The notes below the pieces were generated by a model. That model saw only the letters and a list, made by a program, of their open reading frames with translations, had not been told where the DNA came from and searched no databases. A stretch of DNA of 64,000 nucleotides from an uncultured Prevotellaceae bacterium. Its GTDB lineage: Bacteria > Bacteroidota > Bacteroidia > Bacteroidales > Bacteroidaceae. A program made the translations under genes and the position numbers. This document shows positions 20,819-62,828 of this stretch, in pieces; the first letter of the stretch is position 1; every line of letters starts with the position of its first letter. The stretch is taken from positions 29,642-93,641 of the forward strand of contig CACYME010000005.1 in NCBI GenBank assembly GCA_902775475.1. The letters are read 5' to 3'.

Positions 20819-20821
20819 TGA

Positions 20822-20895
20822 GGGTTAAGTGTTGAGAGTTGAGAGACGTTAGACAGGTCGGCAGAACTAACGTCTCTCAACTCTAAACCCTTAAC
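20822..20895. terminator. Long hairpin built from GTTGAGA heptamer words between convergent rnhA and ribD (probable bidirectional terminator / REP-like element)
   Basis: GGGTTAAGTGTTGAGAGTTGAGAGACGTTAG - loop ACAGGTCGGCAGAAC - CTAACGTCTCTCAACTCTAAACCCTTAAC. About 19 bp are perfect next to the loop. The same right-arm unit recurs at 33281 and 33337. Confidence 0.7.
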
Positions 20896-20907
20896 ACAAA
20901 ACAACTT

Positions 20908-26841: not shown

Positions 26842-26849
26842 AATTTATG

Positions 26850-26857
26850 CAAAGTTA
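26850..26857 (-). promoter_or_regulatory. -7 promoter box TAACTTTG for the hybrid sensor gene
   Basis: Reverse complement of CAAAGTTA, 9 nt upstream of the ATG (cat 26839-26841). Confidence 0.5.
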
Positions 26858-27121
26858 CCAAAACGCTCTCAAACAACCTTGTCTATTTTTTACAAATCTG
26901 CAGTTTGTTAGAGATTCTAAACGAATTTTAATCAATTTTTCACACGTAGGGTCGTTTTGTAGCAACTCCGATGCCAGCGGAAAACATTTAGACATCTGAA
27001 CAAATGAAAGAAATTTTCGTAATTTACACAAGAGCCCACTTGAAACGTACTTTTCGAACGGGGCAGAAAAGGCACGATAAGGTTTCTGTCCTTTTCTGGT
27101 TGGGGGGGGCAGTGTAGCTAT

Positions 27122-27587
27122 GAAGCCTCATTGAAATCTTAAAAATAAATAATTTTAAGGAAATATTGAACACCCGCCCCTCGAAAATACGCGAAAATTT
27201 CGCGCGAGAAAGTTTTTGGCTGAAAAAACGCGAATTTTAAGAGGGCTTTCTAAATGGCTGGTTATCTGATATTTATGATTAATTTGCCAAAATTTTGCGC
27301 TTTTTCGCTTTCAAAAGTCAACGCCTTTTGAAAATTTGGCGTTGACTTTTGAAAATTTGGCGTGCTTAAAAATGAACGAAACAAGGCAAGAAAAGCGAAA
27401 AATGAGGCAAAAAAAGCTGAAAAAGCTGCACAAAACCACCACAAGTGTGCCATTTTCGGCCCTTTCGTCACCTGCTTCCACGCCCATCGCCCATCGAAAA
27501 TCGTCCGAAACGCCCATTTGTCGCTCCAGAATGCTCCTGAATCGTGAACTTTTCATTTAAGGGAATTTAAGGAAATTTTGAACACTC
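27122..27587 (-). repeat. Copy C of the ~0.45 kb AT-rich repeat family; left bracket of the 22-kb cluster
   Basis: Collinear with copy B. The 23-nt end repeats are at 27151-27173 and 27563-27585, and the core hairpin at 27309-27355. It lies between the divergent hybrid sensor and AraC genes. Confidence 0.85.
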
Positions 27588-27612
27588 ACTTAGACAAACA
27601 TCGTATTCTCTT

Positions 27613-27710
27613 AACAACGAATTAAGACGAATGGAACGAATGGCAAGGATTATACGAATTGCACTAATAGCAACGCGCAGCAATTCGTCCAATTCGTTAA
27701 ATTCGTTGTT
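27613..27710. promoter_or_regulatory. ~100-bp palindrome built from ACGAAT / ATTCGT words upstream of the AraC gene
   Basis: AACAACGAATTAAGACGAATGGAACGAATGG..TACGAATTGC - 17 nt - GCAATTCGTCCAATTCGTTAAATTCGTTGTT. The inner 9-bp arms are perfect and the outer 22-nt arms nearly so. Confidence 0.5.
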
Positions 27711-27881
27711 CATATAAATCATTTCGGTGTTTAGAAGGGACTACGAAAACGGGCTAAACGGGTGTTATAAACAGACAAACTCGTTGTATAGAAATGGCAA
27801 ATTGTCTGTTTTTACCTCATTTTGTAAGAAAGCGACAATTTTTTGTAAATTTTAGACAATAAGATTTCTAATAATTCTCAC

Positions 27882-27889
27882 TAACTTTG
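27882..27889 (+). promoter_or_regulatory. -7 promoter box TAACTTTG, the only such box found by eye in front of or inside the 22-kb cluster
   Basis: Matches TAnnTTTG, 13 nt upstream of ATG 27902. The TTG start at 27887 used by the ORF track lies inside the box. Confidence 0.55.
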
Positions 27890-27901
27890 CAACAACAGAA
27901 A

Positions 27902-28315
27902 ATGCTCATTTATGTGTTCATCAAAATGAATCAATTTAAGCATATCGAAGAACAGCTCCATCAGCTCCAGCTGAGCACCGCCGAGAAGGCTTTTCTCGAC
28001 GATGTGAGGACCTACATCCTGAGCAACATGGCCGAGGGTCACCTCTCCGTGGAGTCGGTTGCTGAAGGGCTGTTCATCCACGAGTCTAAACTGCGCCGCC
28101 GCATCGCCCAGTCCACGGGGCTCACCCCCCGGATGTTCCTGGCCGTGGTGCGCATGGAGCGCGCCTGCGAGTTCCTGACCACCTATCCCGCCATGACCAT
28201 CGAGCAGATTGCCTACGAATGCGGCTTCGCCGACCACAGCCACTTCACCCACTCCTTCCGCCGGCTCTTCGGCATGAGCCCCACCAGCTATGCCAGACAG
28301 CTGTCTGCTTCCTGA
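27902..28315 (+). CDS. Small AraC/XylS-family HTH transcriptional regulator (DNA-binding domain plus short N-terminal region)
   Basis: LFIHESKLRRRIAQSTGLTPRMFLAVVRMERACEFLTTYPAMTIEQIAYECGFADHSHFTHSFRRLFGMSPTSYARQ. Confidence 0.85.
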   Translation: MLIYVFIKMNQFKHIEEQLHQLQLSTAEKAFLDDVRTYILSNMAEGHLSVESVAEGLFIHESKLRRRIAQSTGLTPRMFLAVVRMERACEFLTTYPAMTIEQIAYECGFADHSHFTHSFRRLFGMSPTSYARQLSAS

Positions 28316-28343
28316 GAACAATCACCTCCAAAATAAGTGCGAT

Positions 28344-30152
28344 ATGAAAAAGACACTTCTCCTGCTGACCACCCTGCTGAGCCTCGGTCTCGGTGCATAC
28401 GCGCAGAGCGCATGGACCGGGCCCGACGCCCACCAGTATAACGACGAGACCGTCGTCTATGCCACGCTGAGCATCAACGGCCATGCCGCCGGAGCCGACA
28501 ACGCCGACTACGCCGTGGCCGCCTTCATCGGTGACGAATGCCGCGCCGTGGCCGAGGAGGCCATGACGGGTGTCGGCGGCACGACGCTCTTCGTGCTGCG
28601 CGTGGGCGGCGACCGCGAGGCCGACCAGGGCACCACGCTGCGCTTCGAGGCCCGCTACAAGGCCAAAGGCACTACCTACGCCGTCAGCGCCGCCACCGCC
28701 GTCACGTTCAACAGCGAGAGCTGGGGCCGCCCGTCGCTGCCCGTCGTGCTCAGCGGCGAAGGCTACACGCCACACACGTCGGTCACTGGCTTCGAGTGGA
28801 GCCTCAGCGGCCAGCCCTACAACCGCGAGACTGTGCAGCTCAGGCTGACACCACGGCCCGCCAACGCCACGTTCAGTCCGGCCGACCTGCGTTTCCGCTA
28901 CACCTCCGACTACAACTGGGAGCAGGTGTGGCAGATTGTCGACTTGCAGCTGGCCTCGCGCGAACCTCTTATATATAATGTCACGTTCCAGGTGCCCATG
29001 GGCGCCGACATCAAGGCCTACTGGGCCGACGAGCCCGACGTGGAGGTGCCCCTCTGGCCTGCAGGCGAGACCGAGGCCTACTGCGCCATGACAGCGTGGT
29101 TCCGCCTCGACCTCAAGGAGGGCTGGCAGTGGCGCTCCAACCCCTGCGGCTATCTCTGGGACGACGACCTCGAAGCGGGCTTCGGCCCCTACCTCATCGA
29201 GGCCCGCACGCAGGACGAGCTGCTCTACAACGACCCCTCGTGGGGCTACTTCGGCACGATGATGGAAGGCAACGGCATCGACGACAAAATGGCCTACAAG
29301 GTGCGCATGGCCCAGGACTACCGCTCGCGCACTTTCGGCTCCACCGTCGGAACGGGTGGCGACCCCTTCGAGCTGCCCGTCAGCGAAGGATGGACCTGGA
29401 TGCCCTCGCCCTACCTCTACGACCGTCTGCTGCAGAACATCTTCCAGGCCGACCAGCTCGTTGAGGGCATGGTCATCATCTCGAAGGAAGAAGGCTCGGC
29501 CGAATGGAACGGCAGCCAGTGGGAAGGCGACCTCGAAGTGCTGCCCACCGAGCAGAGCTTCCTCCTCTATATGCCTGAAGGAGCCAGCTTCAACCTCCGC
29601 TTCAACCCCGAGCGCTACATGCCGCAGGGCAACGAGACAGCCCCCACCCCCTCGCGCCGCTCTGAGCAGGCTGAGGGCGCTGCCAGCGTAGGCCACGAGG
29701 TGGCCCGCCGCTTCCGCGACAACCTGACCATGGTGGCCACGCTGTCGCTGGCGGCTAATCAGGCTGACTACCAGCTGCGTGCCTACGTCGGCGACGAACT
29801 GCGCGGCGTGGGCCATGCCGGCCAGGCCGACCGCGTGTTCGTCACCGTCCATGCCGATGGTGGCGAGCGCGTCAGTTTCCGTCTGGCCGACCTGCACACG
29901 GGCGCCGAGTATGCCGTCGACGAAACGGTCGTCGTGGCACAGCCGCGCCTCGGCTCGCTGCGACAGCCCGTGGAGCTCCACGCCACAGCACTCACGCAGG
30001 GCATTGCCGACCTCCCCACGGAAGCCACGGCAACAGCCGCCACCCAGCGCTACGACCTGCAGGGCCGCAGCCTGTCCTCCTCTTCCCCTTCGAAGGGCAT
30101 CGTCATCCGCCGTGCTGCCGACGGCAGCGTCCGCAAGGTGGTGCAGCGGTGA
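28344..30152 (+). CDS. Exported protein of unknown function with a T9SS-like C-terminal tail (602 aa), paralog 1
   Basis: Signal peptide MKKTLLLLTTLLSLGLGAYAQS. N- and C-terminal copies of a ~90-aa FxGDECRG module and a central GWQWRSNPCG...GWTWMPSPY domain. Tail is RYDLQGRSLSSSSPSKGIVIRRAADGSVRKVVQR, resembling the S8 peptidase tail at 15340-15456. Confidence 0.7.
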   Translation: MKKTLLLLTTLLSLGLGAYAQSAWTGPDAHQYNDETVVYATLSINGHAAGADNADYAVAAFIGDECRAVAEEAMTGVGGTTLFVLRVGGDREADQGTTLRFEARYKAKGTTYAVSAATAVTFNSESWGRPSLPVVLSGEGYTPHTSVTGFEWSLSGQPYNRETVQLRLTPRPANATFSPADLRFRYTSDYNWEQVWQIVDLQLASREPLIYNVTFQVPMGADIKAYWADEPDVEVPLWPAGETEAYCAMTAWFRLDLKEGWQWRSNPCGYLWDDDLEAGFGPYLIEARTQDELLYNDPSWGYFGTMMEGNGIDDKMAYKVRMAQDYRSRTFGSTVGTGGDPFELPVSEGWTWMPSPYLYDRLLQNIFQADQLVEGMVIISKEEGSAEWNGSQWEGDLEVLPTEQSFLLYMPEGASFNLRFNPERYMPQGNETAPTPSRRSEQAEGAASVGHEVARRFRDNLTMVATLSLAANQADYQLRAYVGDELRGVGHAGQADRVFVTVHADGGERVSFRLADLHTGAEYAVDETVVVAQPRLGSLRQPVELHATALTQGIADLPTEATATAATQRYDLQGRSLSSSSPSKGIVIRRAADGSVRKVVQR

Positions 30153-30223
30153 ACGACTCCTATCGACAGTAAGCATAAAATCAGAAACAATCAATATTAA
30201 CAACCAAAAAAACAGTAACAGTT

Positions 30224-33200
30224 ATGAAAAAGCTATTATCACTGCTGATGGTCTTATGCTGCGCCATCGGAGCATCAGCACAGCAAGGCTGGACAGCCCG
30301 CACGGGCCAGTCGCAGGACAGAACGGTCGTCATAGCCGACTTTTCCGTAACCAATGGTGCGTCTGTCTATGAAGGCAACTGGCGAATTGGCGTCTTCGTC
30401 GGCGGCGAGTGCCGCTTGGTAACGAGTGACAACGCTCAAGGCGTACTGACGCACATGAACAACCAACAGTTCCTGATGCTCGAGGTTCCCGGCAACTTCG
30501 ACGATGAGAACGACGAGGGCAAGGAAATCGTCATCAAAGTCAGTTCATCGATGGGCGACGTCTACACCCTGAAGCCCGACCAGACGCTGACATGGCAGCC
30601 TGAGACCACCTACGGCGTAGGCTCCGGCCCCCGTGTGCAGTTGGCACTCACCCTTCCCGCCGAAGTCACTCTTAGTGGTTTCAGAATCGATGCAGGAAAC
30701 AGTGTCGACCTGACAAACTTCCTGAACGTCAGTCCCGCTAATGCTCAGATTCCTGAGAATCTCATCTGGTACGTTGGCAACAACTACTATCAGCCAGGTG
30801 ACTACGGTCAGTTTGCCACCATCAGCGGCAGCACGCTGACCGCCGTGAAGCCCAACCTGAGCGAAGGCGAGAACCTGCCTATTCCCTACGGCTTCGTCAT
30901 CAATGCAGGCAACTACATGCCACTAATCGTCAATGGCAACCCTGTTGAGAACGCATCTTTCTACATCGAGCAACCCGCTACGACCCTGACCATCGTCACC
31001 GAGACATTTGAGGTAGAGAGGGGCTTTGCTGAGGAACTGACCGTCTTCATGCGCAACCAACACAACTACAAGGCCTACAGCACCACCCCAGAAGAAATTA
31101 CCGACGAGGTGAAGTGGGAAATTGAGGATGCTACCTACATCCAGGAAGATCAGGGCACGTGGGAACCCATCAAGGGCGGCACCACCCGCATCCGCCCCTA
31201 CATTGAGCGCGCTGACGGCAACCTCTACCCCGAGGGCAACAAGTGGATTACGGTCAACATCATCGTGCCCGTAGAAGAAGCTTATTTCAACTGGCCTTAC
31301 GACCCACAGACGCAGCAACAGATCACCTTTAAGTGCAATGTTGGCGACGAGAACATCCTTCAGCACCTAGACCAATATGTGAGAATTCTTCCTTTGGATG
31401 CTACCGACAGGACTTACACCATCACCGACATCAGCTCTTACGGTTCGCCTCAAGAACTTGGCTACAGGCCTGTACTTTATGTCAATTCCGACAATACCAT
31501 CGAAGCCAGTGCGTCTGGTTATGCCGAACTCCTGATTCAACCCAATGGCATTGGTGGCGAAGATTTGGCATTCACTGTATTTGTAGAAGTGGACGATCCT
31601 CTCAAGGAGGTAAGCTTCACCGAGGATCCCCTTACATTCGACTCAGCAACCAACACGCTCGAAACCATCACCAGCGGAATCCGTCGTAACATCATCTGGC
31701 AAGATGAGTACAAGGCCTTGCAATTCGGAACGCTTAGCGTAGCGGGTGTTCTCACTGGCTCTGGTGAATTCTCGGCCAACGGTCCCATGCTGACCCTGAA
31801 CAACACGGAAATCCCAAAGGGCGAGAGCACCATTACCGTCAGACTCGGATGGAATGACTACAGCCAATACGACGGTACGGAAGAGTCCATCGCTCAGCAG
31901 TGGAACGCAGGCCAGAGCTTCAAGGTCGTCATCACCATGGGCCTCGACCACTTCACCATCACCGTCACCCCAAGCAGCGATGATCCCACCCGCGGCACCA
32001 TCACTCTGACGCCCGTGCCTGCTGACGCCGACTTCGACTGGGCCGACTACGCAGACATCCTCACCGTCAGCAGCGATTACTACGATAGCTCTTGGCACAC
32101 CATCGACATCAAGGCTGGAGGCGAAGGCATCTACACCTACGTGGCGCTGCTGCCTGGAATGTTCGCTGCCAACTGCGACCCTGACGAAGAGGACGTGTTT
32201 TTTGAGGTTCCCTACAGGGTCACCTTCGCCAACGGATGGCAGTGGAAGAGTAATCCTTACGGCGATATGATGTCGAACAAGAACCTCTATAGTTACTTTG
32301 GTGACGACCTTGCTGAGGCCCGCACCTACGACAAGCTGCTTTACAACGATACCGAATGGGGCTACTGGGGCTCGCTCTACGACAGCCAAGAAATCGCCAT
32401 CGAGCAGGCTCAGATGTATAAGGTGAAGATGAATGCCGCCCATGAGACCTTCCTATACGGTGGTAATAGTGCAGAATGGAACGAATTTAACGTTGCCAAG
32501 GGCTGGAATTGGATTGGCTCGCCTTACTTCTATAAGCGCACGCTGGATCGCATCACAACTCCCGTCGATGGAATGATCGTCGTGGGCAAGACAGGCTCGG
32601 CCGAATACGACTACAACAGCAACACCTGGAGCGGCGATTTGAAGGCCATCGAGCCTGGACAGGGCTATTACGTCTACATGCCCGCAGAGACAGAGACCGG
32701 AACCATTATTCTGGAATGTGAGGTCTTCGGACACATGAATCAGAGCGACGATGGCGGCGCCGGTGCCCGTGCTGCCCGCCAGAGCGTATGGAGCTACGAT
32801 CACTCGCGCTTCGCCAACAACATGACGATGGTGGCCGAGGTGAGCGACCTTGACAATCCCGAGGAGTACACCATCGGTGCATTCGTCGACGGTGAGTGCC
32901 GCGGTGAGGGTATCTTCGAGGATGGACGCGCCTTCATCACAGTACACACCGACGGCGGCGAGCAGGTGGCACTGCGCCTGCACAACGAGCTCACCGGCGA
33001 ATACACTGACATCGACCAGACCATCAGCACCACGGCCATGCGCCTCGGCTCGCTGAAGGCTCCCGTGCAGCTCACGGCACAAGGCGTCGTCACCGGCATC
33101 AGCACCGTAGAGGGCGCACAGCAGCCGACAGAGCGCTTCGACCTGAACGGACGCACCGTGAAGGGCAACCACAAGGGCATGACCATCGTGCGCCAGGCCG

Positions 33201-33229
33201 ATGGCAGCGTCCGCAAGGTAGTTCGCTAA
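30224..33229 (+). CDS. Exported protein of unknown function with a T9SS-like C-terminal tail (1001 aa), paralog 2
   Basis: Signal peptide MKKLLSLLMVLCCAIGASAQQ. It has the same terminal modules (IGVFVGGECRLV; IGAFVDGECRGEG) and central domain GWQWKSNPYG...GWNWIGSPYFY as paralog 1, plus ~400 extra residues of Ig-like segments. Tail is RFDLNGRTVKGNHKGMTIVRQADGSVRKVVR. Confidence 0.7.
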   Translation: MKKLLSLLMVLCCAIGASAQQGWTARTGQSQDRTVVIADFSVTNGASVYEGNWRIGVFVGGECRLVTSDNAQGVLTHMNNQQFLMLEVPGNFDDENDEGKEIVIKVSSSMGDVYTLKPDQTLTWQPETTYGVGSGPRVQLALTLPAEVTLSGFRIDAGNSVDLTNFLNVSPANAQIPENLIWYVGNNYYQPGDYGQFATISGSTLTAVKPNLSEGENLPIPYGFVINAGNYMPLIVNGNPVENASFYIEQPATTLTIVTETFEVERGFAEELTVFMRNQHNYKAYSTTPEEITDEVKWEIEDATYIQEDQGTWEPIKGGTTRIRPYIERADGNLYPEGNKWITVNIIVPVEEAYFNWPYDPQTQQQITFKCNVGDENILQHLDQYVRILPLDATDRTYTITDISSYGSPQELGYRPVLYVNSDNTIEASASGYAELLIQPNGIGGEDLAFTVFVEVDDPLKEVSFTEDPLTFDSATNTLETITSGIRRNIIWQDEYKALQFGTLSVAGVLTGSGEFSANGPMLTLNNTEIPKGESTITVRLGWNDYSQYDGTEESIAQQWNAGQSFKVVITMGLDHFTITVTPSSDDPTRGTITLTPVPADADFDWADYADILTVSSDYYDSSWHTIDIKAGGEGIYTYVALLPGMFAANCDPDEEDVFFEVPYRVTFANGWQWKSNPYGDMMSNKNLYSYFGDDLAEARTYDKLLYNDTEWGYWGSLYDSQEIAIEQAQMYKVKMNAAHETFLYGGNSAEWNEFNVAKGWNWIGSPYFYKRTLDRITTPVDGMIVVGKTGSAEYDYNSNTWSGDLKAIEPGQGYYVYMPAETETGTIILECEVFGHMNQSDDGGAGARAARQSVWSYDHSRFANNMTMVAEVSDLDNPEEYTIGAFVDGECRGEGIFEDGRAFITVHTDGGEQVALRLHNELTGEYTDIDQTISTTAMRLGSLKAPVQLTAQGVVTGISTVEGAQQPTERFDLNGRTVKGNHKGMTIVRQADGSVRKVVR

Positions 33230-33231
33230 AT

Positions 33232-33385
33232 GTTAAGGGTTGAGTGTTGAGAGTTAAGAGTTGAGAGACTTTAGACTGGGCGGCAGGACTGACGTCTCTC
33301 AACACTAAACACTGATCACTCAACACTCAACCCTAATTCAGCAGAACTAAAGTCTCTCAACTCTCAACCCTAAACACTCAAACCT
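33232..33385. terminator. Three-arm GTTGAGA-word hairpin element (one left arm, two alternative right arms) between paralog 2 and the OMP gene
   Basis: The left arm GTTAAGGGTTGAGTGTTGAGAGTTAAGAGTTGAGAGACTTTAG has two possible partners. One is GTCTCTCAACACTAAACAC..CACTCAACACTCAACCCTAA (33293-33335). The other is CTAAAGTCTCTCAACTCTCAACCCTAAAC (33348-33376). It belongs to the same family as 20822-20895. Confidence 0.6.
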
Positions 33386-33388
33386 AAT

Positions 33389-35188: not shown

Positions 35189-35201
35189 TGATAAATGATA
35201 T

Positions 35202-38200
35202 ATGGCTATGAATAAAAAAGAAAGAATAAAGAGTTTCTGCTCAATGATAAAGGACAGTCGATGGATGATGGCGTTAGCCCTATCATTTATCATTTACCAT
35301 TTGTCATTTAGCCGCGCAGCGGCGCAAGACGTGACCCTCCAGGTGACGCCCGTTCAGAGCGTGCTGCCCCCACAGGCCGGCAAGTATATCGACAACCTGG
35401 GCCGCTACTTCAGGGTGACCGTCATCAACAACACCGATGCCGCCCAGCGCATCTACTTTGGCGTTCAGGTGCAGCAGAAGTTCCCCAACGACGTGCTGTG
35501 GATGTCGACCAACGTGGAGACGATGCACATCCCTCAACAGCCCATCGTGCTCTCGCCCAACCAGCACAAGACGCTCAACAGCATCGAACTGAAGCACCTC
35601 TTCGACCACTTCGACTCGCACGACATCTTTGTGCGCGAAGGCCGCTACAAGAACATCCTCGACTCCGAGTTCGGTCTGCTCGACGAAGGACAATACGAGC
35701 TGCAGCTCACCGCCTACAAGTGGGATCCCGAGCTGTCGTCGCCCGTAGTGCTCAACAACCAAACCGATGGCCTGGCCCTCTTCAACATCTGCTACGAGGC
35801 CGAGGCCCCAACGTTCATCAGCCCTATCCGCTCGTTGGTGCCCGATGGTCTGAGCGACCTGGCCATCACCAAGATTAATAAGAAGCAGGCACAGATACGC
35901 TTTGAGTGGACGCAGCCCACGCTCAATTGCAACGCTACGATGGTGAACTACCGCTATCGCATCCGCTTCGTCGAACTCGGCTCGATGATGCCCGACGAGG
36001 CTATGGAGGAGAACACCATCACCTTCCTTGAGCAACGCGAGCTGCTGACCAACAGCTACAGCATACCAACGCCCTACGTCGCCCAGATGATTGCCGACAC
36101 TGCCGCCTACGGCAAAGTCTACGCCATGCAGGTGACGGCCTACACCCCTTATCAGAACAAAAACTCGCTCAACGTCGCTCTCATCAAGAACGAAGGCAAG
36201 AGCGACATCTTCCTCTTCCAGCTCTACGATCCGGAAAAAGCTGACAGAAGCGTTACGAAGGGCGAGGCGAAAGGCTCCGACGTGATAGCAGAAGACGGCG
36301 GGGTGCTCTACCGCTTCGAGCAGCCCACGCTGACATCACCACAGTTTCCTGACAACAGGAGCCGACTGATGTTTGTTGGCGACAGCATCAAGGTGGAGTG
36401 GCGCAAGGCCTGGTTTGCAGGCGGCAAGGGCGAACGCCAGGACACGGTGAACTTTGAGTACACCGTCAACCTCTTCAAGGGAAATACGGCCGACACCCGC
36501 GAGGTGATACTGAAAACCACCAAGCCCTTCTATACAAAGACCACCAAAGAACTGAAGGACACCATCCGATGGAAGGCCATTCAGTCGGAAATCAAATCTG
36601 GCGACTACTGCATCCTGCGCGTCACCGCCAAGCCCACCAACAAGCCCGACTCCATCTTCAAGATGCAGGGCGACTCACTCAACTTCAAGGACTTCGCCTT
36701 CACCTCGCACTTCGACGAGACCTACATGTGCGGACGCAACACCGCCACGGTGGAGAACAAGGAACCCATTGCCGAGAAGCCCAAGGCCGGCACAAGATAC
36801 AAGATTGGACAGTGGAACCTGGAACTCATCGACGAGCCATCCCGCCCGCTGGAGTTCGACAAGGAAAAGAAGACGCTGAAGGGCTTCGGGCGCATCGAAT
36901 GGAGCGTCATGAAACCCAAGGCCTACATCGCCGTGAAGTTCGACAGCCTGAAAGTCAATACCGACGGCATTGTCTTCGACGGCATCTGCAAGACCTACGC
37001 CAAGAGCAGCCAGAAGGTGGATGGCACCGAGTACACCGAAGAGCAGATTGTAGACTCACTGTTCTCGTTGGCCAGCCTCGACAATATCTTCGGCTCGCTG
37101 TCCATCCCGAAAAGTGTTCAGGACCGTGTCACTGGCTATGCCAAGGACGAGGCCACCAATCTGGCGAAGAGCTACAACCTGGGCAAATACTACACCCAGT
37201 ACAAGAAGGCCGAGACCACTTGGGAAAACTGGCAGAAGGGCGACCTGGGCGACCTCTACTTCCCCTTTGAGGCCCCCGATGAGATCAAGAAGTACCTGCC
37301 CAAGGACTTCAGCCTGCAGATTGGCAACATGACATTCTCGCCGTCGTATTCCGTGATGAACCTCATCGGTGCCATCACGCTGCCCAACAGCGACATCTTT
37401 GAAGACCAGAATGTGCTCGTCTTCGGCGCGCCACGCCTGTGCATCTCGCCCGACCGATTCTTCCCCGAGGACGGCGTGCTGGCTCTGCTGAGCAACTTCG
37501 TCATCAGCGACCCGTCGAGCGACTTCAAGCTTGTCTTCAAGGCTCCCTCCGACCCACTTAATCCCGTCACTGAAGACGGCTGCTTCATCAAGTGGGAGAA
37601 TGACGAGTTCGATGCCCTCGGCATGGAGATTGCCATGACCATCCCCAACACCACGCGCGTCGTCGACGGCAAGACACAGAAGGACGTGCCCGCCCTGCTC
37701 GACCTGTGGACCACCATTGAGGCCGGAGGCAACGCATGCGACTTCATCGCCGAAGGTACCATGACACCCTTCCAGGTGAACGACCTGCCCGACTGGACCT
37801 TCACCGTGGGCAAAAAGATTGTCTTTGACCACCACCTGGAGCGCAACGGCAAGAACATGCCCACCCTAAAGACCGTTGAGGAGTGGAGCAACAACACCTA
37901 CGACCTCAAGGAGGTAACCAACTACAAGAGCTGGGAAGCCTGGCAAGGGGTCTACATCGACGAAATCAGCGTCCAGTTCCCCAAGTGGGCGGTCATTGGC
38001 AACGGCGAGAAGGGTGTCACGCTCGGCGGTCAGCACATGATCTTCGATGCATCGGGCGTCACGGCCAAGTTCTTCGCCAAGGATGTGCTGAATGCTGAGA
38101 CGGGCAAGTGTGGCGGATGGAAGTTCACCATCGACGAAGCCAACGTGCAGATAGTGCAAAACAACTTCGACAACTGCTCCATCAAGGGCGGCTTCGGCGT

Positions 38201-44237: not shown

Positions 44238-46540
44238 GCAATAAGAATATCCTCGTTGTTGGGGCCACGCTGCTCATGAGCGGCTCCACGGCCATGGCCC
44301 AGTCTACTGACAGCATTGCCAGCCCAGACATCCTGACGGTAGCCGACAGTACCCAGCATCGTCAGCTGGTCGACGCCGACACCATCATCTACCAGGAGCC
44401 ATCCATCATCACCACGAAGATTCGCGCCCTGGCCCGCACCTATGGCGACAGCATCGCGCTGCGGTGGGTGCCCGAAGACTACGTGTCATGGCGCTACCTC
44501 TGCCAGACGGGCGTCAACATCCTTCGCACGGAGAGCAACGCCGAGACCTTTGCCATCGACACGCTGGCCTATGCGCTGAAGCCCCTCAGCGAGGAAGCGT
44601 TCAGGGCGAAGTATGCGCCCAACGACAGCAACGCGCTGGTGGCTCAGGGCATCCTCTATGGCGAGGGTCGCCTGGGTGCCAACCAGACCGAGAACTTCCC
44701 TGGCTCCATGGGGGCTTCGATGGAATACAACAACGAGCAGGATCTCTCATTTGCCTTCGCCATGCTCGTGGCCGAATGGCGCCCCGACCTGGCCCGCGAC
44801 ATGGCCGTAGGCTTCCTCGACCGCACCGCGCAGCCCGGCAAGATGTACGACTACTACATCCAGCCCACGCAGTGGGACACCGACGGCCGCCTCATCTTCG
44901 AGCCTGGTGTGGCTGAGCGCGTGAGAAACCATGAATACACGCCCGACATCTTCGACCCTCGGATGGTAGACTCCATCTCCAGTCCGCGCCGCCACGTGCT
45001 GGGCTGGTGGGACGACAAGTACTCCACTTATGACATCTATCGTCGCCACGTGAGCGATGCCGATGGCAATCCCGTTGACGGGACGTGGAAGCGCATCAAC
45101 CAAAAGCCCTATCTCTCCATCATCGAGCTGCCAGAGGGCGACGACTACAAAGCCTACTCCGACTCCGTGCCCAGCTTCGGCGTCTACGAATACTTTGTTG
45201 TGGGCCACGACCCCTTCGGCACCGCCAACCCATCGCTCCACCATCTCAAGGTGAACGTCTACGACAACGAGCCGCCATCGGCACCACAGCTGAAGGGTAT
45301 CGTCGTCGACTACCCCGACGACGACATCCGCGGACGAACGCGGGCACACATCATCTGGGAGAAGGACACGATAGAGGGCGACCTACAGGGCTACGTGGTC
45401 AGATACTACAACGCGAAGATCAGCGGCGAGACTTGGATAGAGCTGAACGACAAGATGATTCCCCCGACGGACACGATGTTTGTGGCCGACGTCACCGGCC
45501 TGCGCACGGGCATGCTGCAGGTGGCGGCCTACGACCTGTCGGGCAACGAGGCCACGTCGTTTTCGCAGCTCATCGAGCTACACGACTTCAAGGCTCCCGC
45601 CCCCCCTGACTCACTAACGGCACAGGTGGTGGTGCCACAACTGACACCGCTCTACAAGAAAGAGATGAAGCATGCCTACGTCATCCTACGCTGGAAGCCC
45701 AACCCTGCCGACGACGACATCATGCACTACGACATCGCCTTCGCCAACGACACCACCCACGCCTTCCAGCGACTCAACGAGCAGTCCATCAACGCCCAGT
45801 GGTTCATCGACTCGCTGGCCCTCGACGCCAACCAGAAATACATCTACTACAAGGTGCGCGCCACCGACTATTCTACCAACGAGGGCGAGTGGAGCCCCTG
45901 GATTCAGGTGAAGCGCCCACACCTCACACCGCCCACACAGCCCCACTTGGAACGCTCGAACAACAGCGACGAGGAGGGCATCCACATGGAGTGGGTGATA
46001 GGAACTGATGCCGACATGGAGTATCACAAAGCCTTCCGCCGCCGTGGCGAGGTGGGTGAATGGGAGCTGATAGGCCGCTACGACCACGACTCGCTGACGG
46101 CCCACAGCTACACCATCGTCATCGACGACCGGCCAGAGTTCGACCGCCAGCAGCGCTACTACTACTACGTGGAGTCGTTCAACTCGTCGCCCTTCACCTC
46201 GAAGAGCCTCGCCGTGAGCTTCCTCTTCCAGGGCCCGAAGATATGGGACGTCAGCCTGAAACTCATCGGCGACTACGACGAGAAGACGAACCTGACGCGA
46301 CTGGTGTGGGACACGGGCAAGCTGCCCTTCGATGCCCCCTACTACTACTGCATCTACCGGCGAGCCGCTGGCGAGGAGCGCTATGAATACATGGGCAACG
46401 TGCCAGCTGACACACAGGAATTCACCGACCAGCGCCTGAAGCCGGGCGAGCAGGCCGAGTACTATGTGATGATACAGTGGCGCGACGGACGGCAGAGCAC
46501 ACTGTCGAATACCATCACGGTGAAGAGAAGTGAAAAGTGA
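44231..46540 (+). CDS. Exported protein made of repeated fibronectin-type-III-like modules (769 aa)
   Basis: The start overlaps the giant gene stop (ATGGTAA). Signal peptide NILVVGATLLMSGSTAMAQS. There are 4-5 repeats of a W..(D/P)..D..GY..Y......W......Y.Y.V.A.D..GNE pattern, e.g. AHIIWEKDTIEGDLQGYVVRYY...LQVAAYDLSGNEATS and YVILRWKPNP...IYYKVRATDYSTNEGEWS. Confidence 0.6.
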   Translation: MVSNKNILVVGATLLMSGSTAMAQSTDSIASPDILTVADSTQHRQLVDADTIIYQEPSIITTKIRALARTYGDSIALRWVPEDYVSWRYLCQTGVNILRTESNAETFAIDTLAYALKPLSEEAFRAKYAPNDSNALVAQGILYGEGRLGANQTENFPGSMGASMEYNNEQDLSFAFAMLVAEWRPDLARDMAVGFLDRTAQPGKMYDYYIQPTQWDTDGRLIFEPGVAERVRNHEYTPDIFDPRMVDSISSPRRHVLGWWDDKYSTYDIYRRHVSDADGNPVDGTWKRINQKPYLSIIELPEGDDYKAYSDSVPSFGVYEYFVVGHDPFGTANPSLHHLKVNVYDNEPPSAPQLKGIVVDYPDDDIRGRTRAHIIWEKDTIEGDLQGYVVRYYNAKISGETWIELNDKMIPPTDTMFVADVTGLRTGMLQVAAYDLSGNEATSFSQLIELHDFKAPAPPDSLTAQVVVPQLTPLYKKEMKHAYVILRWKPNPADDDIMHYDIAFANDTTHAFQRLNEQSINAQWFIDSLALDANQKYIYYKVRATDYSTNEGEWSPWIQVKRPHLTPPTQPHLERSNNSDEEGIHMEWVIGTDADMEYHKAFRRRGEVGEWELIGRYDHDSLTAHSYTIVIDDRPEFDRQQRYYYYVESFNSSPFTSKSLAVSFLFQGPKIWDVSLKLIGDYDEKTNLTRLVWDTGKLPFDAPYYYCIYRRAAGEERYEYMGNVPADTQEFTDQRLKPGEQAEYYVMIQWRDGRQSTLSNTITVKRSEK

Positions 46541-46581
46541 AGAGTGAAGATTTTGCTTCCGCTGAAAAAACGCAAAAGGAT

Positions 46582-47379
46582 ATGAAAAGGAGAATGTTTT
46601 GGCTTCAGAAGCGCTGGGCATCGTCACTCAGCCTGATAGCGATAAGTGCATTGTTGGTCGCCTGCGGCGAATACTGGGAGGGCGGCGAGCCCGTGGCTGC
46701 CCGGAAGATGACGCTGGGGCGAAAGGTGGTGAACATGGTGGTGGGCGACCGCTACCGCATTCCCGTCTTCTTCGAGCCCGACACGCTCTCGAACCGCGCC
46801 GTGTTCTGGCAGACGGAGGACAATGAGATAGCCCTGGTGGAGAACGACACGGTAGTAGCCGTCAACGTGGGCCTCACACGGGCCTACGCACTGAGCGTCA
46901 GCGACCGACAGACGGACTCATGCTGGGTGAACGTGTTGCCACCGATGTACATCAACTCTAAGCTGTACCCCTACGACATGGTCATCTATGCCGACGTCAC
47001 CATCCATGGCCACCACTACACCCAGGCCGACGAAGACTCGCTCATCATCGCCGCCTACTCTGGCGATGACCTGCGGGGCATCGGCAAGATGCGCCAGTGG
47101 AACGACAAAGACTACATGGAGCTGCGCATCTGGAGCCCCATCCGCTATGGCGGCGAAGTGCAGCTGCGCTGCTACTACCGGGGCAAGGCCCTGGCCGAGG
47201 TATTCCCCGACGTGCTGGAGTTCGACGGCGACGCTCACGGCACGCTCTCGAACCTCTACCCGCTGGTGCTCGACAACAACGCCGAGGAATACCTGCCCGC
47301 CATCGACCCCGACGACTACGACCCCTACCACGAAGATGGCGATACCATCCATGTGGTCATAACCGACCCAGAACCTTAA
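46582..47379 (+). CDS. Lipoprotein with a Big_2-like Ig domain and one copy of the FxGDECRG-type module (265 aa)
   Basis: Lipobox MKRRMFWLQKRWASSLSLIAISALLVAC. Big_2-like segment VVNMVVGDRYRIPVFFEPDTLSNRAVFWQTEDNEIALVENDTVVAVNVGLTRAYAL. Module is LIIAAYSGDDLRGIG...MELRIWSPIRYGGEVQLRCYY. An alternative GTG start at 46537 would overlap the upstream stop. Confidence 0.65.
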   Translation: MKRRMFWLQKRWASSLSLIAISALLVACGEYWEGGEPVAARKMTLGRKVVNMVVGDRYRIPVFFEPDTLSNRAVFWQTEDNEIALVENDTVVAVNVGLTRAYALSVSDRQTDSCWVNVLPPMYINSKLYPYDMVIYADVTIHGHHYTQADEDSLIIAAYSGDDLRGIGKMRQWNDKDYMELRIWSPIRYGGEVQLRCYYRGKALAEVFPDVLEFDGDAHGTLSNLYPLVLDNNAEEYLPAIDPDDYDPYHEDGDTIHVVITDPEP

Positions 47380-47396
47380 AAAAAAGCATAACCATT

Positions 47397-49832
47397 ATGA
47401 AGACGATCATATCCCGACTCTGCTGCTTCATAGGCCTCACGGCCATGATGGCCTCATGCAACCTCTTCATCGACGACGACGAGCTGGAGGCCAACGAGTT
47501 CAGAAACGTTCCCGTGCATTCGGGCGAAGGCTACGACGCCCCAGTAAAAGAACACGAAGGCGGCTGCGACATTGAATATCAGTTCAATGAAGACGTGCGG
47601 GTGGTGGCGGCCGAGACGCAGGATGCCTACATCACCAGCGTCAAAGCGGACGAAGACAACATGTCGCTCATCGTGAGCTTCCGCGCCGACACGCCAAAGG
47701 AACTGCTTCCAAAAGCCGGTGAAATTTTCCTCAGCACAGCGACCAACAAGTTCCCCATGGGAGCCAACCACCGAGTACTGGAGTGCGAGAAGGAGGGCGA
47801 TGGCTACCAATGCGTGATGGCCTTCGCCAAGCTGGAGGAAACGTTCAAGACGCTGCACATCAATGGAAGCGTGGACTTTGGAACAGACTCTTTCCAAGTT
47901 GCCAGTCCACCTTACGAGGAAGAAGCTGGTGCACGCACAAGAGCCGAGGGTGATGACGCCTCCGTTACGGCTGATGTGAAATGCGAAGGAAACGAAATAT
48001 CCTTCAGCTTGCCTTTTAGCTTTAGCCTCAACTACCTCCACCCTAACGGACTTCATGGTGAAGCTACTGCAAGCAAGGAAAAGAATTTCTATAAGGTGAC
48101 CAACGAATTCAAGTTCGACGATTTCTCGCTCGACAACATGAAGGCCGACTTTGTTCAGACCATAGAGGAGAGTGCAGGCATCGTTATCTCCGGCGGGTTC
48201 ACAAAGTCAGTCAGACTGACCAAGAATTCCTTATATATCCTGAGGAACAAGCCCGTTCTCATCGGATCCGTGTTGGTATTGGTATTTTGGATCTCCGCCG
48301 ATGTGTATCTTGACTTGGATCTTTCCGCCACTATCACCATCAGCAAGCACAAGAAATACCAAAACATCTACCACCTCGACCTATACGAGCAAAAGTTAAC
48401 CAAGGAGACCAAAGTGCTGATTGACAAAGAGTGGCATCTGGATGCGAGCATCGATGGCAGCTTTGGCCTAAGAGTGGAACTGACAATCGGCATAGGCATT
48501 TATGGAAAAGTGCTTTCCGTCAGATTCATTCCTACGCTTAGGGCGATGTTCACACTCACCACTCCCATCGTCTCACACGAATCAGGTCAGTTGTGGTTCG
48601 ATCTCTCTAATGCTGCGGGACTAACCTTCACAATTGATTTCTCAGTAAAACTTGGCGTATTCCTCGATTTGTCACTGAAAACTTTGTTTGGTGACAGTAG
48701 TAAACCCATGAAGAATAAGGAACTGATAGACAAAGTGAAGAAGGGAGACCCAGAAGCAAAGAAAAAGTTCGACGAATTGGCCAATCAAGCCAGCAACAAT
48801 GACCATATTGACGAAAAGGGTGCATACCTCAACTTAGGGCCATGGATACTCTTCACCAAAACGTTTACATGGTATCCCAAATTGGACGACAAATCATTCC
48901 AAATCATCAGGTCATGGGACAAAGACAATAAGCAGATGACGTTCTCTGCCCAATACAAGCTCTCAAAATGGGGGTTTTGGACATCCATCATGGGCAGGCA
49001 TTTCACGCCAGGTTTGATGATTAAGAGGGGGAAAAAATACATCACCACTATCTTCCCCAATGAAGGAGGAACAGAGGCGACATGCTCGCTCGATAAAACA
49101 TACACCTTCGACATCCCTATCGACTATGATGAAAAAGACATCATGTACACAGCATATCCATGCTTCTTCGAATTGCCATGGAAGAGCAATATGCCCGATG
49201 CTTTCGACAAAGGTCTCCCCTTCTGTAACACCTCGCCCGAAATAGTTATCAACGAAGTAGTACCCTACGACCTGCATAAGGAGTGGCTCTCCGAGAATGG
49301 AGAGTTAGTTTTTGTTGAAGACGATTTCTATGACTACGCTTACACCTTTGATATCAAGACTCTTACCGCCATCAAAGGCGCAGCGAATATAGATTCTTGG
49401 CAAATCAATGAGTTATACACGGGAACAAAGCATAAATACAGTTCGAAAAAAGACAAAAAGAAAGACGGCATATACATTATGTACTGGGACTTCACGGTAT
49501 ACCGGAAAAACGACAAGAAATTTCCTATGTACCTGTCTTTCTACCCGATATTTTCGCTCAAGGATAGCAATAGTTCATGGACGACAGGAAGGAAATACGA
49601 TATGACAATATGGAGCAACAGGACTTATGAAGTGACACAAGACAGCTACGGAGGCAGCTTTACAGACACTTTCTCGCGCATGCGAGATGCCAATCCAGAC
49701 AGCGACGACGAGAAGAGCGTGACGAAATGCCAGTTGAATGCCATTGAATGCGACGGCGAAATCATCTGGCAACGGCCCGGCAGCAACTTCCAGAAGCCCG
49801 AACCATCGACCACGCCGTTCCAAAAGCTTTAA
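47397..49832 (+). CDS. Lipoprotein of unknown function (811 aa), mostly AT-rich coding sequence
   Basis: Lipobox MKTIISRLCCFIGLTAMMASC at ATG 47397. The upstream 100 codons in the ORF track overlap the previous gene and are Arg/Pro-rich shadow. The beta-rich middle reads VLVFWISADVYLDLDLSATITIS...GLRVELTIGIGIYGKVLSVRF. Confidence 0.7.
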   Translation: MKTIISRLCCFIGLTAMMASCNLFIDDDELEANEFRNVPVHSGEGYDAPVKEHEGGCDIEYQFNEDVRVVAAETQDAYITSVKADEDNMSLIVSFRADTPKELLPKAGEIFLSTATNKFPMGANHRVLECEKEGDGYQCVMAFAKLEETFKTLHINGSVDFGTDSFQVASPPYEEEAGARTRAEGDDASVTADVKCEGNEISFSLPFSFSLNYLHPNGLHGEATASKEKNFYKVTNEFKFDDFSLDNMKADFVQTIEESAGIVISGGFTKSVRLTKNSLYILRNKPVLIGSVLVLVFWISADVYLDLDLSATITISKHKKYQNIYHLDLYEQKLTKETKVLIDKEWHLDASIDGSFGLRVELTIGIGIYGKVLSVRFIPTLRAMFTLTTPIVSHESGQLWFDLSNAAGLTFTIDFSVKLGVFLDLSLKTLFGDSSKPMKNKELIDKVKKGDPEAKKKFDELANQASNNDHIDEKGAYLNLGPWILFTKTFTWYPKLDDKSFQIIRSWDKDNKQMTFSAQYKLSKWGFWTSIMGRHFTPGLMIKRGKKYITTIFPNEGGTEATCSLDKTYTFDIPIDYDEKDIMYTAYPCFFELPWKSNMPDAFDKGLPFCNTSPEIVINEVVPYDLHKEWLSENGELVFVEDDFYDYAYTFDIKTLTAIKGAANIDSWQINELYTGTKHKYSSKKDKKKDGIYIMYWDFTVYRKNDKKFPMYLSFYPIFSLKDSNSSWTTGRKYDMTIWSNRTYEVTQDSYGGSFTDTFSRMRDANPDSDDEKSVTKCQLNAIECDGEIIWQRPGSNFQKPEPSTTPFQKL

Positions 49833-49865
49833 TCGTCCTTTACAGAGGACAACACCACACCTACT

Positions 49866-49919
49866 CCCCGCTGCCATTCCTCCACTCACAATGTGGCAAG
49901 GATGACAGCGGGCTTTTTC
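49866..49919 (+). terminator. Hairpin plus T-run terminating the cluster
   Basis: CCCCGCTGCCAT - 27 nt - ATGACAGCGGG followed by CTTTTT, 34 nt after the stop at 49832. There is one mismatch in an 11-bp stem. Confidence 0.5.
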
Positions 49920-50140
49920 GACCTATTCGGTTGAATCGCGATGCAAAGGCGTTTCCAACCGAATATACCGCAGAGGCTTTTTCACTCCGTTAAAAGTAGG
50001 AAATCACCTTATGTAATTCTGTCCTGCGGCATGTTGTGCGGCGTTAGACAAGCTAACGCCCTACAGCGGCGGAGAAGCGGCGGAGAAAATACAGCGAGAC
50101 TTGGATTGATTTTCGTTTTTGAACATACCGACGGATTAAA

Positions 50141-50556
50141 ATTGTCAAAATATTTCACAAAAAAACAGCTCACGGCAACGAGGCAAAATTTGGCGAAAAA
50201 TGGCCGTTTTGGGGGCTTAGAGAACCCATGGGGAGCCTCTCTTAAAGAAAGATTAAGTAAAATAATCTTAATTATTGCACAAACCCCCTAATTTTGCGCA
50301 CGTTTTTCTCGCATTTTTTGCCCATTTTCGCGTTTCTGTAAGCACGCCAAATTTTCAAAAGTCAACGCCAAATTTTCAAAAGGCGTTGACTTTTTTTTCT
50401 CAACGAACGCCTTTTTTCGCAAAAATCAGCCCAATATACTAAAAATCAATCATTTAACAAACCCTCTCAAAACTCGCTCATTTTCGTCCAAAAGTTTTTT
50501 CGTGGAGAATTTTCGAAATATGGAGGCCAAAAATGGCCATTTTGTCAATATCTTTC
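50141..50556 (+). repeat. Copy D (most diverged) of the ~0.45 kb AT-rich repeat family; right bracket of the 22-kb cluster
   Basis: The core at 50344-50394 is identical to copy A (AAGCACGCCAAATTTTCAAAAGTCAACGCCAAATTTTCAAAAGGCGTTGACTTTT), here followed by a T-run. The ends are TTGTCAAAATATTTC and TTGTCAATATCTTTC. Confidence 0.7.
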
Positions 50557-50745
50557 AAAAAAAATACATCCTCGTCCTGGCAGTTTTTTTTCGCTTTTAG
50601 TAACCATAAAAACCGCAACAATTCTGTGGTGGCACGCTATTTATCACAATTAGTGAAAAGGACATTTTGGCTGCGCCGAAGGTACTCCCGTTTGGAAAAG
50701 CAAAAGAAAAAGGTGTTTTTCTTTTGCTTTTCGCTCACTTATTCG

Positions 50746-50753
50746 TACCTTTG
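50746..50753 (+). promoter_or_regulatory. -7 promoter box TACCTTTG for pyrE
   Basis: Matches TAnnTTTG, 37 nt upstream of ATG 50790. Confidence 0.5.
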
Positions 50754-50789
50754 CAGAAAATTTTGAAGGAACATTATTATATAATATAT

Positions 50790-53845: not shown

Positions 53846-53858
53846 GCGGCGCTACGCG

Positions 53859-53939
53859 CCTAAATAATAAATGACAAATGATAAATGACGGGGCTGCTCA
53901 AGCCTGCTATCATTTATCATTTGTCATTTATCATTTAGG
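53859..53939. terminator. 30-bp-stem hairpin built from AAATGAY heptamer words, between the lipoprotein gene end and the tRNA-Leu 3' end (bidirectional terminator candidate)
   Basis: CCTAAATAATAAATGACAAATGATAAATGAC - loop - TATCATTTATCATTTGTCATTTATCATTTAGG, with one mismatch. Confidence 0.7.
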
Positions 53940-53955: not shown

Positions 53956-54043
53956 TGGTGCCGCGAGCGGGACTCGAACCCGCACAACCCTTCCGGGTCA
54001 AGGGATTTTAAGTCCCTCGTGTCTACCATTCCACCATCGCGGC
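53956..54043 (-). tRNA. tRNA-Leu (anticodon UAA), long variable arm, CCA encoded
   Basis: The reverse strand reads GCCGCGATGGTGGAATGGTAGACACGAGGGACTTAAAATCCCTTGACCCGGAAGGGTTGTGCGGGTTCGAGTCCCGCTCGCGGCACCA. Acceptor GCCGCGA/TCGCGGC, anticodon stem AGGGA/TCCCT with loop CTTAAAA, and T-loop GGTTCGAGTCC. Confidence 0.93.
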
Positions 54044-62705: not shown

Positions 62706-62720
62706 TGTTGAGTGTTGAAT

Positions 62721-62808: not shown

Positions 62809-62828
62809 TAAAAACAATAAACTGAGTA

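Follow-up and report, generated by a model that had tools for sequence, protein, structure and literature searches.

The stretch of DNA analysed here, 64,000 nt of contig CACYME010000005.1 from an uncultured Prevotellaceae bacterium (assembly GCA_902775475.1) and called the window below, carries four copies of an AT-rich, non-coding repeat of 430-510 nt. Four such repeats of about 0.45 kb had been reported in a preliminary description of this DNA, and a search with nhmmer, using a profile built from 18 family members, recovers exactly four full-length copies in the window and no partial ones. Copy A (2256-2701, + strand) lies between clpB (-) and a gene for an A2M-like protein (+); copy B (17909-18357, -) between blaI (-) and argS (+); copy C (27140-27587, -) between the gene of a hybrid sensor/AraC-type regulator (-) and a small AraC gene (+) that heads a 22-kb cluster; and copy D (50116-50607, +, with the profile match itself at 50131-50578) between the last gene of that cluster and pyrE. 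These gene contexts, as originally proposed, are borne out by Pfam, which gives the pairs as ClpB and A2M-like, BlaI and ArgS, a hybrid sensor with an AraC helix-turn-helix domain and the small AraC protein, and the last cluster gene and a PyrE-like protein. The coordinates first given had found the right copies, with ends that are off by about 10-40 nt relative to the profile calls. The claim that no transposase or recombinase is encoded here also stands, as no such domain was found in the roughly 30 window open reading frames (ORFs) scanned.

A repeat search of the window relates the copies to one another in different degrees. A and C are an inverted pair, 87% identical over 429 nt; between B and C there are three direct blocks of 81-90% identity; and D matches the other copies in blocks only. 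The homology of A and C is limited exactly by a direct repeat at either end (2257-2685 in A); in alignments of other copies it extends 35-70 nt further, and the boundaries vary from copy to copy. A conserved coding frame was rejected: an ORF of 68-81 codons is present in A and C, where 13 of 68 residues differ at a DNA divergence of 13%, and the same frame is stopped after 12 codons in B and broken in D, so that there is no conservation at the protein level.

The anatomy of the element was drawn from 19 aligned copies, which include loci outside the window found by scanning one genome per species for the exact palindrome (16 loci, L001-L016). At its centre stands a core that consists of TAAGCACGCC followed by a perfect palindrome of 13-18 bp with a 12-nt spacer, AAAAGTCAACGCC-N12-GGCGTTGACTTTT, a pattern that occurs four times in the window and not once in 100 shuffles of it. 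The core is built of units of about 21 nt that resemble ACGCCAAATTTTCAAAAG, and 44 nt of it (TAAGCACGCC and both stem arms) are invariant in the four window copies, which are only 53-87% identical overall. The perfect hairpin of 17-18 bp that had been described holds for A, B and C, while the stem common to all four copies is 13 bp long. In A, the core (2476-2531, +) comprises TAAGCACGCC, a pre-stem copy of the loop and then the palindrome. That of B (18080-18135, -) has a loop, TTTTGAAAATTT, which is the exact reverse complement of the loop of A, C and D, and which can form an alternative 16-bp hairpin with the pre-stem. The core of C (27313-27368, -) folds as single-stranded DNA with -20.8 kcal/mol (z = -6.1), and that of D (50339-50394, +) is identical to those of A-C, although the remainder of D is only 53% identical to them.

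Three blocks are conserved across subfamilies of the element. One is the inverted repeat TTTTGCACA-N13/14-TTTTGTGCA (TGCACA/TGTGCA), the next is TAAGCACGCC with the palindrome, and the last is a right-hand box, TTTAGCAAACCCTCTCAAAAyTCGC..TTTTCG.CCAAAAGTTTTCTCG. In C, the inverted repeat has the form GGCACA-N13-TGTGCA and is followed by phased T-tracts (27369-27453, -; 77 nt from TTTTGTGCA to AGCACGCC), with equivalents at about 2391-2475 in A, 18136-18220 in B and about 50274-50338 in D, where the distance is 57 nt. The right-hand box of C (27192-27260, -; ..TTTAGnAAnCCCTCTyAAAAyTCGC..TTTTCnnCCAAAAnyTTTyTCG..) corresponds to 2581-2652 in A, 17958-18030 in B and 50444-50516 in D.

The element is bounded by direct repeats. 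Every subfamily has a terminal pair of 15-23 nt, and the two members of a pair vary in step: A, B and C carry GTGTTCAAwaTTTCC at either end (GTGTTCAAAATTTCC/GTGTTCAATATTTCC in subfamily 1), and D carries TTGTCAAwATnTTTCA at either end (TTGTCAAAATATTTCA/TTGTCAATATCTTTCA in subfamily 2). The left repeat of A is GTGTTCAAAATTTCC at 2259-2273 (+), with its partner at 2671-2685; the right repeats of B (17918-17940, -) and C (27151-27173, -) are 23 nt long and have partners at 18331-18353 and 27563-27585; and the left inner repeat of D is TTGTCAAAATATTTCA at 50142-50157 (+), paired with TTGTCAATATCTTTCA at 50542-50557. The 23-nt direct repeat that was thought to end every copy is thus present in B and C, reduced to a 15-17-nt core, GTGTTCAAwaTTTCC, in A, and replaced by a different, homologous pair in D. 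Beyond the right repeat, no resemblance to the sequence after the left repeat was found past about 8 nt, and an over-unit-length copy of a tandem or circular template is ruled out by this.

The scan found at least 12 places with the palindrome in a rumen Prevotellaceae metagenome-assembled genome (MAG), RUG13587, and, among the matches listed, three places together in the Prevotella MAGs RGIG1450 and RGIG3793. A further copy, L002, is on contig CAJOLX010000015.1 from reindeer, which is binned as 'uncultured Clostridia bacterium'; here a binning error is more likely than a transfer. At all 16 loci the palindrome is surrounded by a homologous element, of full length (about 410-450 nt) at 11 of them and as shorter matches at the rest, with 65-77% identity to the window copies and flanks unlike those in the window. 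All 19 copies are intergenic. No copy was found in 624 kb of related Prevotella (80 argS loci with ArgS 75-91% identical, and six loci with homologues of the cluster), and the family is restricted to some rumen Prevotellaceae.

The organism of the window is from a bovine or rumen metagenome, and copy number was estimated from four metagenome runs that hold 95-99% of the window's words. The palindrome unitig (core of C, >=98% identity) has 66, 69, 70 and 71 times the depth of single-copy flank in these four metagenomes, which corresponds to some 70 exact cores for each genome equivalent. This is an upper bound, as the identical 34-37-mer may occur in other species of the samples, and the copy number is good to within an order of magnitude; four of the copies lie within the 64 kb of the window. 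When matches of >=85% identity are admitted, the core rises to a depth of about 400 times the flank, and the right and left halves of the element to about 40 and about 4-9 times, respectively; the core is therefore by far the best-conserved part across the family. The suggestion that the repeat might occur at only four sites and reflect local segmental duplication does not survive these results: copies in homologous elements elsewhere, together with the core depth, rule it out, and the family is multi-copy, multi-species and dispersed.

The copies fall into subfamilies that are 45-63% identical to one another. A, B and C form one (76-87% identity within it), D joins L013, L012/L001/L004/L006 and L003 in another (66-92%), L008, L011 and L007 make up a third (87-94%) and L014, L009 and L005 a fourth (76-87%), with L010 and L016 as single copies. 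Two subfamilies are common to both species. D is 67-72% identical to copies of RUG13587, as compared with 53-54% to A-C of its own genome, and the nearest relatives of A-C are L008/L011/L007; as D is nearer to copies in RUG13587 than to its neighbours, the subfamilies predate the species. Bursts of copying from master copies would leave such a pattern, and the copies seen here are old.

There are clear signs that the constraints on the element act on DNA geometry rather than on RNA: the phasing of the T-tracts, a spacer that changes by whole turns, and a free loop. The interval from TTTTGTGCA to AGCACGCC, described earlier as a polypurine tract of about 100 nt, turns out to be a run of T-tracts (A-tracts on the other strand) of 57-77 nt in helical phase, with 4-7 tracts whose centres are 10-12 nt apart (about 10.5-11 bp). 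Nearly all copies show a TT periodicity peak at 10-11 bp, by a mononucleotide-shuffle test that is liberal, since shuffling destroys T runs. Fourteen copies have a spacer of 56-57 nt, L002 and L016 one of 67 nt, and A, B and C one of 77 nt, in other words zero, one or two extra helical turns, and the sequence between the tracts varies freely. The TGCACA/TGTGCA pair is unstable as a single-strand fold (z = -0.9). The 12-nt loop of the palindrome is exactly reverse-complemented in B, L007, L010, L016, L002 and L015 as compared with their closest relatives, that is, in six of about 20 independent copies, and its orientation is stable at a given locus among strains. The orientation of the loop is free, and only the stem arms matter.

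Within this species the copies are fixed, and they are mutually diverged. Insertion polymorphism, one of the signs of mobility to be looked for, was sought in vain: B is present in all 21 same-species contigs examined and D in L101, L102 and L121, so that both occur in every same-species contig that spans them, and no metagenome contig among those examined skips a copy. The contigs for the sensor gene all stop at C, and the small AraC protein, as delimited here, has no database record. No young copies were detected, as judged from the lack of any sibling of the left half of C at >=98% identity in the source metagenomes. Terminal inverted repeats were absent from the repeat search and the alignments, target-site duplications, also sought, were absent from the flanks of A, B, C, L012, L001, L004 and L006, and beyond the ends there is neither a fixed flanking tetranucleotide nor any other shared target. 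Nor is the terminal direct repeat a duplicated host target, which is ruled out by the lack of solo repeats (<=1 mismatch) in the 624 kb of element-free relatives and elsewhere in the window. No neighbouring protein recurs among 78 ORFs beside 16 copies, and viral, phage and plasmid collections returned no match, on which grounds an origin from any of these was rejected. At the 80 related argS loci without the element, homology begins precisely with the start codon of argS and there is no blaI, and a syntenic empty site cannot be defined.

The 3' end of the cluster presents a graded series, from a full D in this species and in L121, through a core-like fragment of about 40-55 nt in L122 (78% nucleotide identity), to nothing in L115 and L118. 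The fragment, at 3430-3501 of L122, holds two direct units of about 21 nt (GAAAATTTGGTAACGAC/TTTTTGAATTTTGGCGTTGAC), together with a little of the sequence that follows the right arm; it represents either what a deletion has left of D or the core in a minimal form. Between L121 and the window, the gene neighbouring D is 99.1% identical, and the changes in D itself are clustered, five of them lying in some 45 nt (50252-50297) at the inverted repeat and another three in the pre-stem. D also has a core, pre-stem and loop of the A-C type despite belonging to another subfamily. These patterns in the aligned sequences suggest short-patch conversion between copies. Since conversion could hold the core identical without selection, we do not take the invariance of the core as proof of a host function.

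On balance we lean towards regarding the element as an interspersed repeat that is old and non-autonomous, is found in some rumen Prevotellaceae, works at the level of DNA, occurs in tens of copies per genome and belongs to the same kind as PINSR and BIME. It shares the general features of interspersed repeats, being non-coding, strictly intergenic, dispersed in many copies and lineage-restricted. The repeats are most probably neither RNA genes nor the ends of a transposon carrying the cluster. The element would act, or would once have acted, as double- or single-stranded DNA, and its layout, in which terminal direct repeats enclose TGCACA-N13/14-TGTGCA, a bend made by 4-7 phased T-tracts, the core of ~21-nt units and the right box, is by analogy that expected of a protein assembly site on bent DNA. 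It may have spread as a non-autonomous element, copied in trans by an enzyme that would recognise the core, the terminal repeats or both. From the earlier suggestion of a MITE- or PATE-like element mobilised in trans we would therefore keep mobilisation in trans, as the most economical origin, and drop the MITE or PATE type, given the lack of terminal inverted repeats and target-site duplications and the central position of the hairpin.

Several observations weigh against this reading. Movement has not been observed, as neither presence/absence polymorphism at a syntenic site nor an empty site, a target duplication or a young copy turned up. The boundaries of the element differ between copies, and there is no candidate for the enzyme, with no transposase or recombinase in the window and no protein recurring beside the 16 copies. 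Direct rather than inverted ends fit no standard transposition chemistry, and relatives contain no solo target repeat. The core is perfect in copies that are 13-47% different elsewhere, which would fit host selection at each site as well. In L001-L016 the invariance of the stem follows from the search pattern, which was the stem itself.

Host selection is the basis of the possibility, doubtful in our view, that the element is an architectural or regulatory site of the host, with some 70 nucleoprotein sites per chromosome. A sequence-specific dimeric protein would sit on the core and a second factor on TGCACA-N13-TGTGCA, on the same helical face and aided by the intrinsic bend. The complex would serve to insulate adjacent genes from one another or end transcription between them, or else to organise the nucleoid, roles that have been proposed for BIME/RIP. 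Such a role would account for a 44-nt core that stays constant in otherwise divergent copies and that is about 10 times more abundant than the remainder of the element at >=85% identity, and for spacer steps of about 10.5 nt with T-tract phasing that is kept while the sequence between tracts varies. It is also consistent with the placement of the copies: in the window, 75-170 nt separate each of the four from a downstream promoter or gene start, and the end that faces the next gene is always the same (the right one); among the 15 copies for which both neighbours were called, about seven have divergent genes on either side, by crude gene calls. However, in the other genomes the same end faces the next gene in about six of 12 cases (again by crude calls). 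Two strains, about 99% identical in the neighbouring gene, have each lost one arm of the TGCACA/TGTGCA pair of D, and not the same one, which suggests decay and not constraint. In close relatives the element is missing both upstream of argS and at the homologous cluster end. An identical core could also be upheld by conversion alone, in the absence of selection, and no binding protein is known. Under the preferred reading of an old interspersed repeat, any effect on neighbouring genes, whether by bidirectional termination, insulation or curvature, could plausibly be a by-product.

Two further explanations fare worse. One holds that the copies form a family of small or cis-regulatory RNAs, in which the central hairpin with its A/T runs would be a bidirectional intrinsic terminator or a processing site; we consider this very improbable. 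The strong hairpin is indeed flanked by TTTTCAAAA and TTTTGAAAA, a pair just beyond the invariant stem has six compensatory changes, and a 248-nt metatranscriptome contig at a depth of 2 lies on the left half of C. That depth, however, equals the background of its library over all genes, and in four metatranscriptomes from the same habitats contig depth over A and B is 0-0.5, with 10-550 over clpB and argS and 1-8 over the A2M gene, even though the DNA core reaches 70-400 times the flank. These RNA data are assembled contigs of low-coverage, strandless metatranscriptomes, which exclude an abundant RNA and not a rare one, and to that extent they also count against the preferred reading of a DNA-level repeat. 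In Rfam, the sole window match at the gathering score is one tRNA-Leu, and at E values up to 10 only chance matches to miRNA and snoRNA families fall on the hairpin. RNAalifold on 18 copies yields 21 pairs in two hairpins. Of these, 19 lack compensatory change, with 17 that are invariant or almost so; covariation is confined to the two outermost pairs (covariation term +0.18), and none was found outside the two hairpins. A terminator scan of 26800-27950 called no intrinsic terminator, the hairpin being passed over because its loop is 12 nt long and its T run (TTTTGAAA) only 4. The free orientation of the loop and the absence of a canonical promoter inside the element argue in the same direction, and a structured or regulatory RNA is not supported. 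The other explanation makes C and D, and likewise A and B, functional inverted ends, with the cluster as a composite mobile unit or the copies as substrates for programmed large inversions. It is the least credible of those considered here and, if weakly, already refuted. C and D do flank the AraC-headed cluster in inverted orientation, G+C in part of the cluster is 43-52% as against about 60%, the inverted pair A/C with 87% over 429 nt is sufficient for homologous recombination, and in a 97%-identical relative (L108) the sequence left of 50666, upstream of pyrE, is unrelated and without D and the cluster. Yet the 'exact' bracketing is loose, with 300 nt from the end of C to the AraC start and about 290 nt from the last cluster gene to D; C and D are only 53% identical and belong to different subfamilies; and neither target duplications nor a transposase are present. 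Moreover, the order of the last four cluster genes (about 3000, 770, 270 and 810 aa) recurs in two other Prevotella species (L115 and L118), whose homologous clusters have no repeat within 10 kb and end 166 and 82 nt before unrelated genes, asparagine-synthase-like and topoisomerase, and the homologue in L122 retains only a short core-like fragment. Contigs crossing B or D are all collinear with the window, with no inversion isomers, and the inverted orientation of C/D and of A/B arises because the right end of each copy faces the adjacent gene start. A composite transposon around the cluster was rejected on these grounds, and the flanking of the cluster by C and D is incidental, as the repeat-free homologous clusters imply. 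As L108 shows, the region is variable; what is seen there is a rearrangement and not a clean empty site, since the junction falls outside D and the left neighbour is an unrelated gene.

Compared by description only, the closest described kind of repeat is PINSR of P. intermedia, which is 188 bp long, occurs in 177-184 copies, is intergenic and mostly position-conserved between strains, and has no known function (2015, PMC4755523). PINSR and the present element are alike in being non-coding, intergenic, confined to one Prevotella sublineage, present in many copies at mostly fixed positions, and without terminal inverted repeats. They differ in length (188 bp against 430-510 bp) and habitat (an oral as opposed to a rumen species), and the description of PINSR contains no palindrome, phased tracts or direct repeats, all three of which are found here. 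The present repeat is thus a second, much larger example of the barely studied Prevotella lineage-specific repeats without inverted ends, and in the collection of papers searched no description of it was found.

Other systems share parts of this design. The BIME and RIP elements of enterobacteria are extragenic mosaics that combine palindromic units with an IHF bending site, occur in tens to hundreds of copies, and have been proposed to act in termination, mRNA stabilisation and nucleoid structure. The element resembles them in its combination of palindrome and bend, its extragenic, mosaic nature and its copy number; it differs in having one perfect palindrome per 430-nt unit and a bend that is intrinsic, due to T-tracts, and not to an IHF consensus. 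REP units are imperfect palindromes of about 35 nt, often in inverted pairs, and are linked to RAYT transposases, with which the present element is not known to be associated. A REP or REPIN identity was rejected, as the palindrome is perfect, single and embedded in a 430-nt unit in 19 of 19 copies, in contrast to the imperfect 20-40-nt units in inverted doublets of REP. The BOX elements of Streptococcus pneumoniae (100-300 nt, boxA-B-C) and the NIME/dRS3 repeats of Neisseria, which are inverted, are likewise modular and intergenic, with short bounding repeats, variable boundaries and no encoded transposase; their sequences are unrelated, and the bounding repeats are direct in our case. A likeness to MITEs and PATEs lies in the small size, AT-richness, intergenic position, multiple copies, subfamilies and lack of coding capacity. 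A MITE is nonetheless excluded by ends that are direct repeats, with no terminal inverted repeats or target-site duplications, and a PATE or other IS200-IS605 derivative by the position of the sole strong hairpin, central and about 240 nt from either end where such derivatives have subterminal hairpins at both ends, and by the lack of a fixed flanking tetranucleotide. In layout only, the element also recalls iteron origins and attP sites, with direct repeats of about 21 nt, or two helical turns, beside an inverted repeat, a bent A+T-rich segment and flanking motifs like binding sites. However, some 70 chromosomal copies cannot all be origins or attachment sites, there is no adjacent Rep or integrase gene, and plasmid, phage and viral collections contain no match.

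A bolder reading, which we think unlikely, is that the conserved module of inverted repeat, phased bend and palindromic core is the assembly site of a new sequence-specific DNA-binding or DNA-processing protein of rumen Prevotellaceae, and that the roughly 70 sites per chromosome are maintained by the host or by a domesticated enzyme as insulator, architectural or recombination sites. If true, the element would be the equivalent in Bacteroidota of the REP/RAYT or BIME systems, though working by another chemistry, based on direct terminal repeats, and the existence of a partner protein would add a new case of a genome-wide repeat with its partner in Bacteroidota. The constraints on DNA geometry offer a concrete handle for finding a protein that recognises the element. 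In practical terms, the repeat breaks short-read assemblies of abundant rumen Prevotellaceae, whose contigs end in it, and for annotation it should be masked or modelled and not be taken as the transposon boundary of an adjacent cluster.

The promoters of the neighbouring genes blaI and pyrE lie outside the element. Exact matches to the Bacteroidetes promoter consensus number four in the window against 0.2 expected, two of the four being these promoters, and a scan for sigma-70 promoters returned matches at chance level. The blaI promoter, TTTG-N20-TATCTTTG (17776-17807, -), is about 100 nt past the right end of B, and the pyrE promoter, TTTG-N19-TACCTTTG (50723-50753, +), is outside D; both are given for context. 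Each lies between the element and the gene, so the element is upstream of these promoters and not their source, and the TAATTTTG box of argS is likewise outside. Across 19 copies, neither strand of the element has a conserved TTTG-N17-23-TAnnTTTG, and a mobile promoter cassette is ruled out for this reason. An extended promoter sequence, TTCGCTCACTTATTCGTACCTTTGCA, is identical upstream of argS in L030, a relative with 90% identical ArgS (1040-1090), and upstream of pyrE in the window (50729-50755). The same relative has, at 780-910 upstream of argS, phased T-tracts followed by a box, AATCACTTAGCAAAAC…TTTCGCG, with the palindrome absent; going by its sequence this stretch resembles the right half of the repeat and may represent a sister family. 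Just outside C, a 9-nt insertion of ACGAATGGA at 27626 is polymorphic among strains. Depth is raised in both DNA and RNA contigs at 27675-27710 (within 27652-27715), which contains GCAGCAATTCG, and a similar stretch, GCAGCAATTTG, is found upstream of argS; the two may be instances of another short conserved motif in the leaders of divergent genes.

The cluster between C and D is an uncharacterised, lineage-specific operon of very large proteins. Its seven ORFs (28290-49832) encode 620, 1001, 599, 3011, 769, 280 and 811 aa, and none of them has a match in Pfam or NCBIfam. Among 5.8 billion proteins the 811-aa protein has no more than 24 homologues, and those with a named source come from Prevotella MAGs. 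Its gene (47397-49832) is 86.8% identical in nucleotides and 84% in protein to 1045-3477 of L121, with codon positions 1 and 2 nearly as diverged as position 3, as against 99.1% for the adjacent 280-aa gene; it is an allele that is either hypervariable or recombined, of the sort that diversifying selection on a surface protein would be expected to produce. The 620-aa and 1001-aa proteins share a C-terminal peptide, KG[IM]x[IV]xRxADGSVRKVV (30093-30142 and 33173-33222), which we take to be similar to the end of a type IX secretion C-terminal sorting domain; a whole-protein scan with NCBIfam gave no family.

The window contains two other kinds of repeat. A second palindromic family, unrelated to the first (…GTTGAGAGTTGAGAGAC…GTCTCTCAAC…, about 85-140 nt), is present at 20814-20903, 33236-33377 and 62704-62817, each copy just 3' of a gene (for an RNase H-like protein, the 1001-aa cluster protein and an S49 peptidase, respectively), and may be a REP-like or terminator-type repeat. 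Finally, a CATTTAn-rich inverted pair of 50 nt, 82% complementary, is found at 35276-35325 and 53846-53895, with one arm near the start of the 3011-aa gene and the other adjoining a tRNA-Leu gene (53956-54043).

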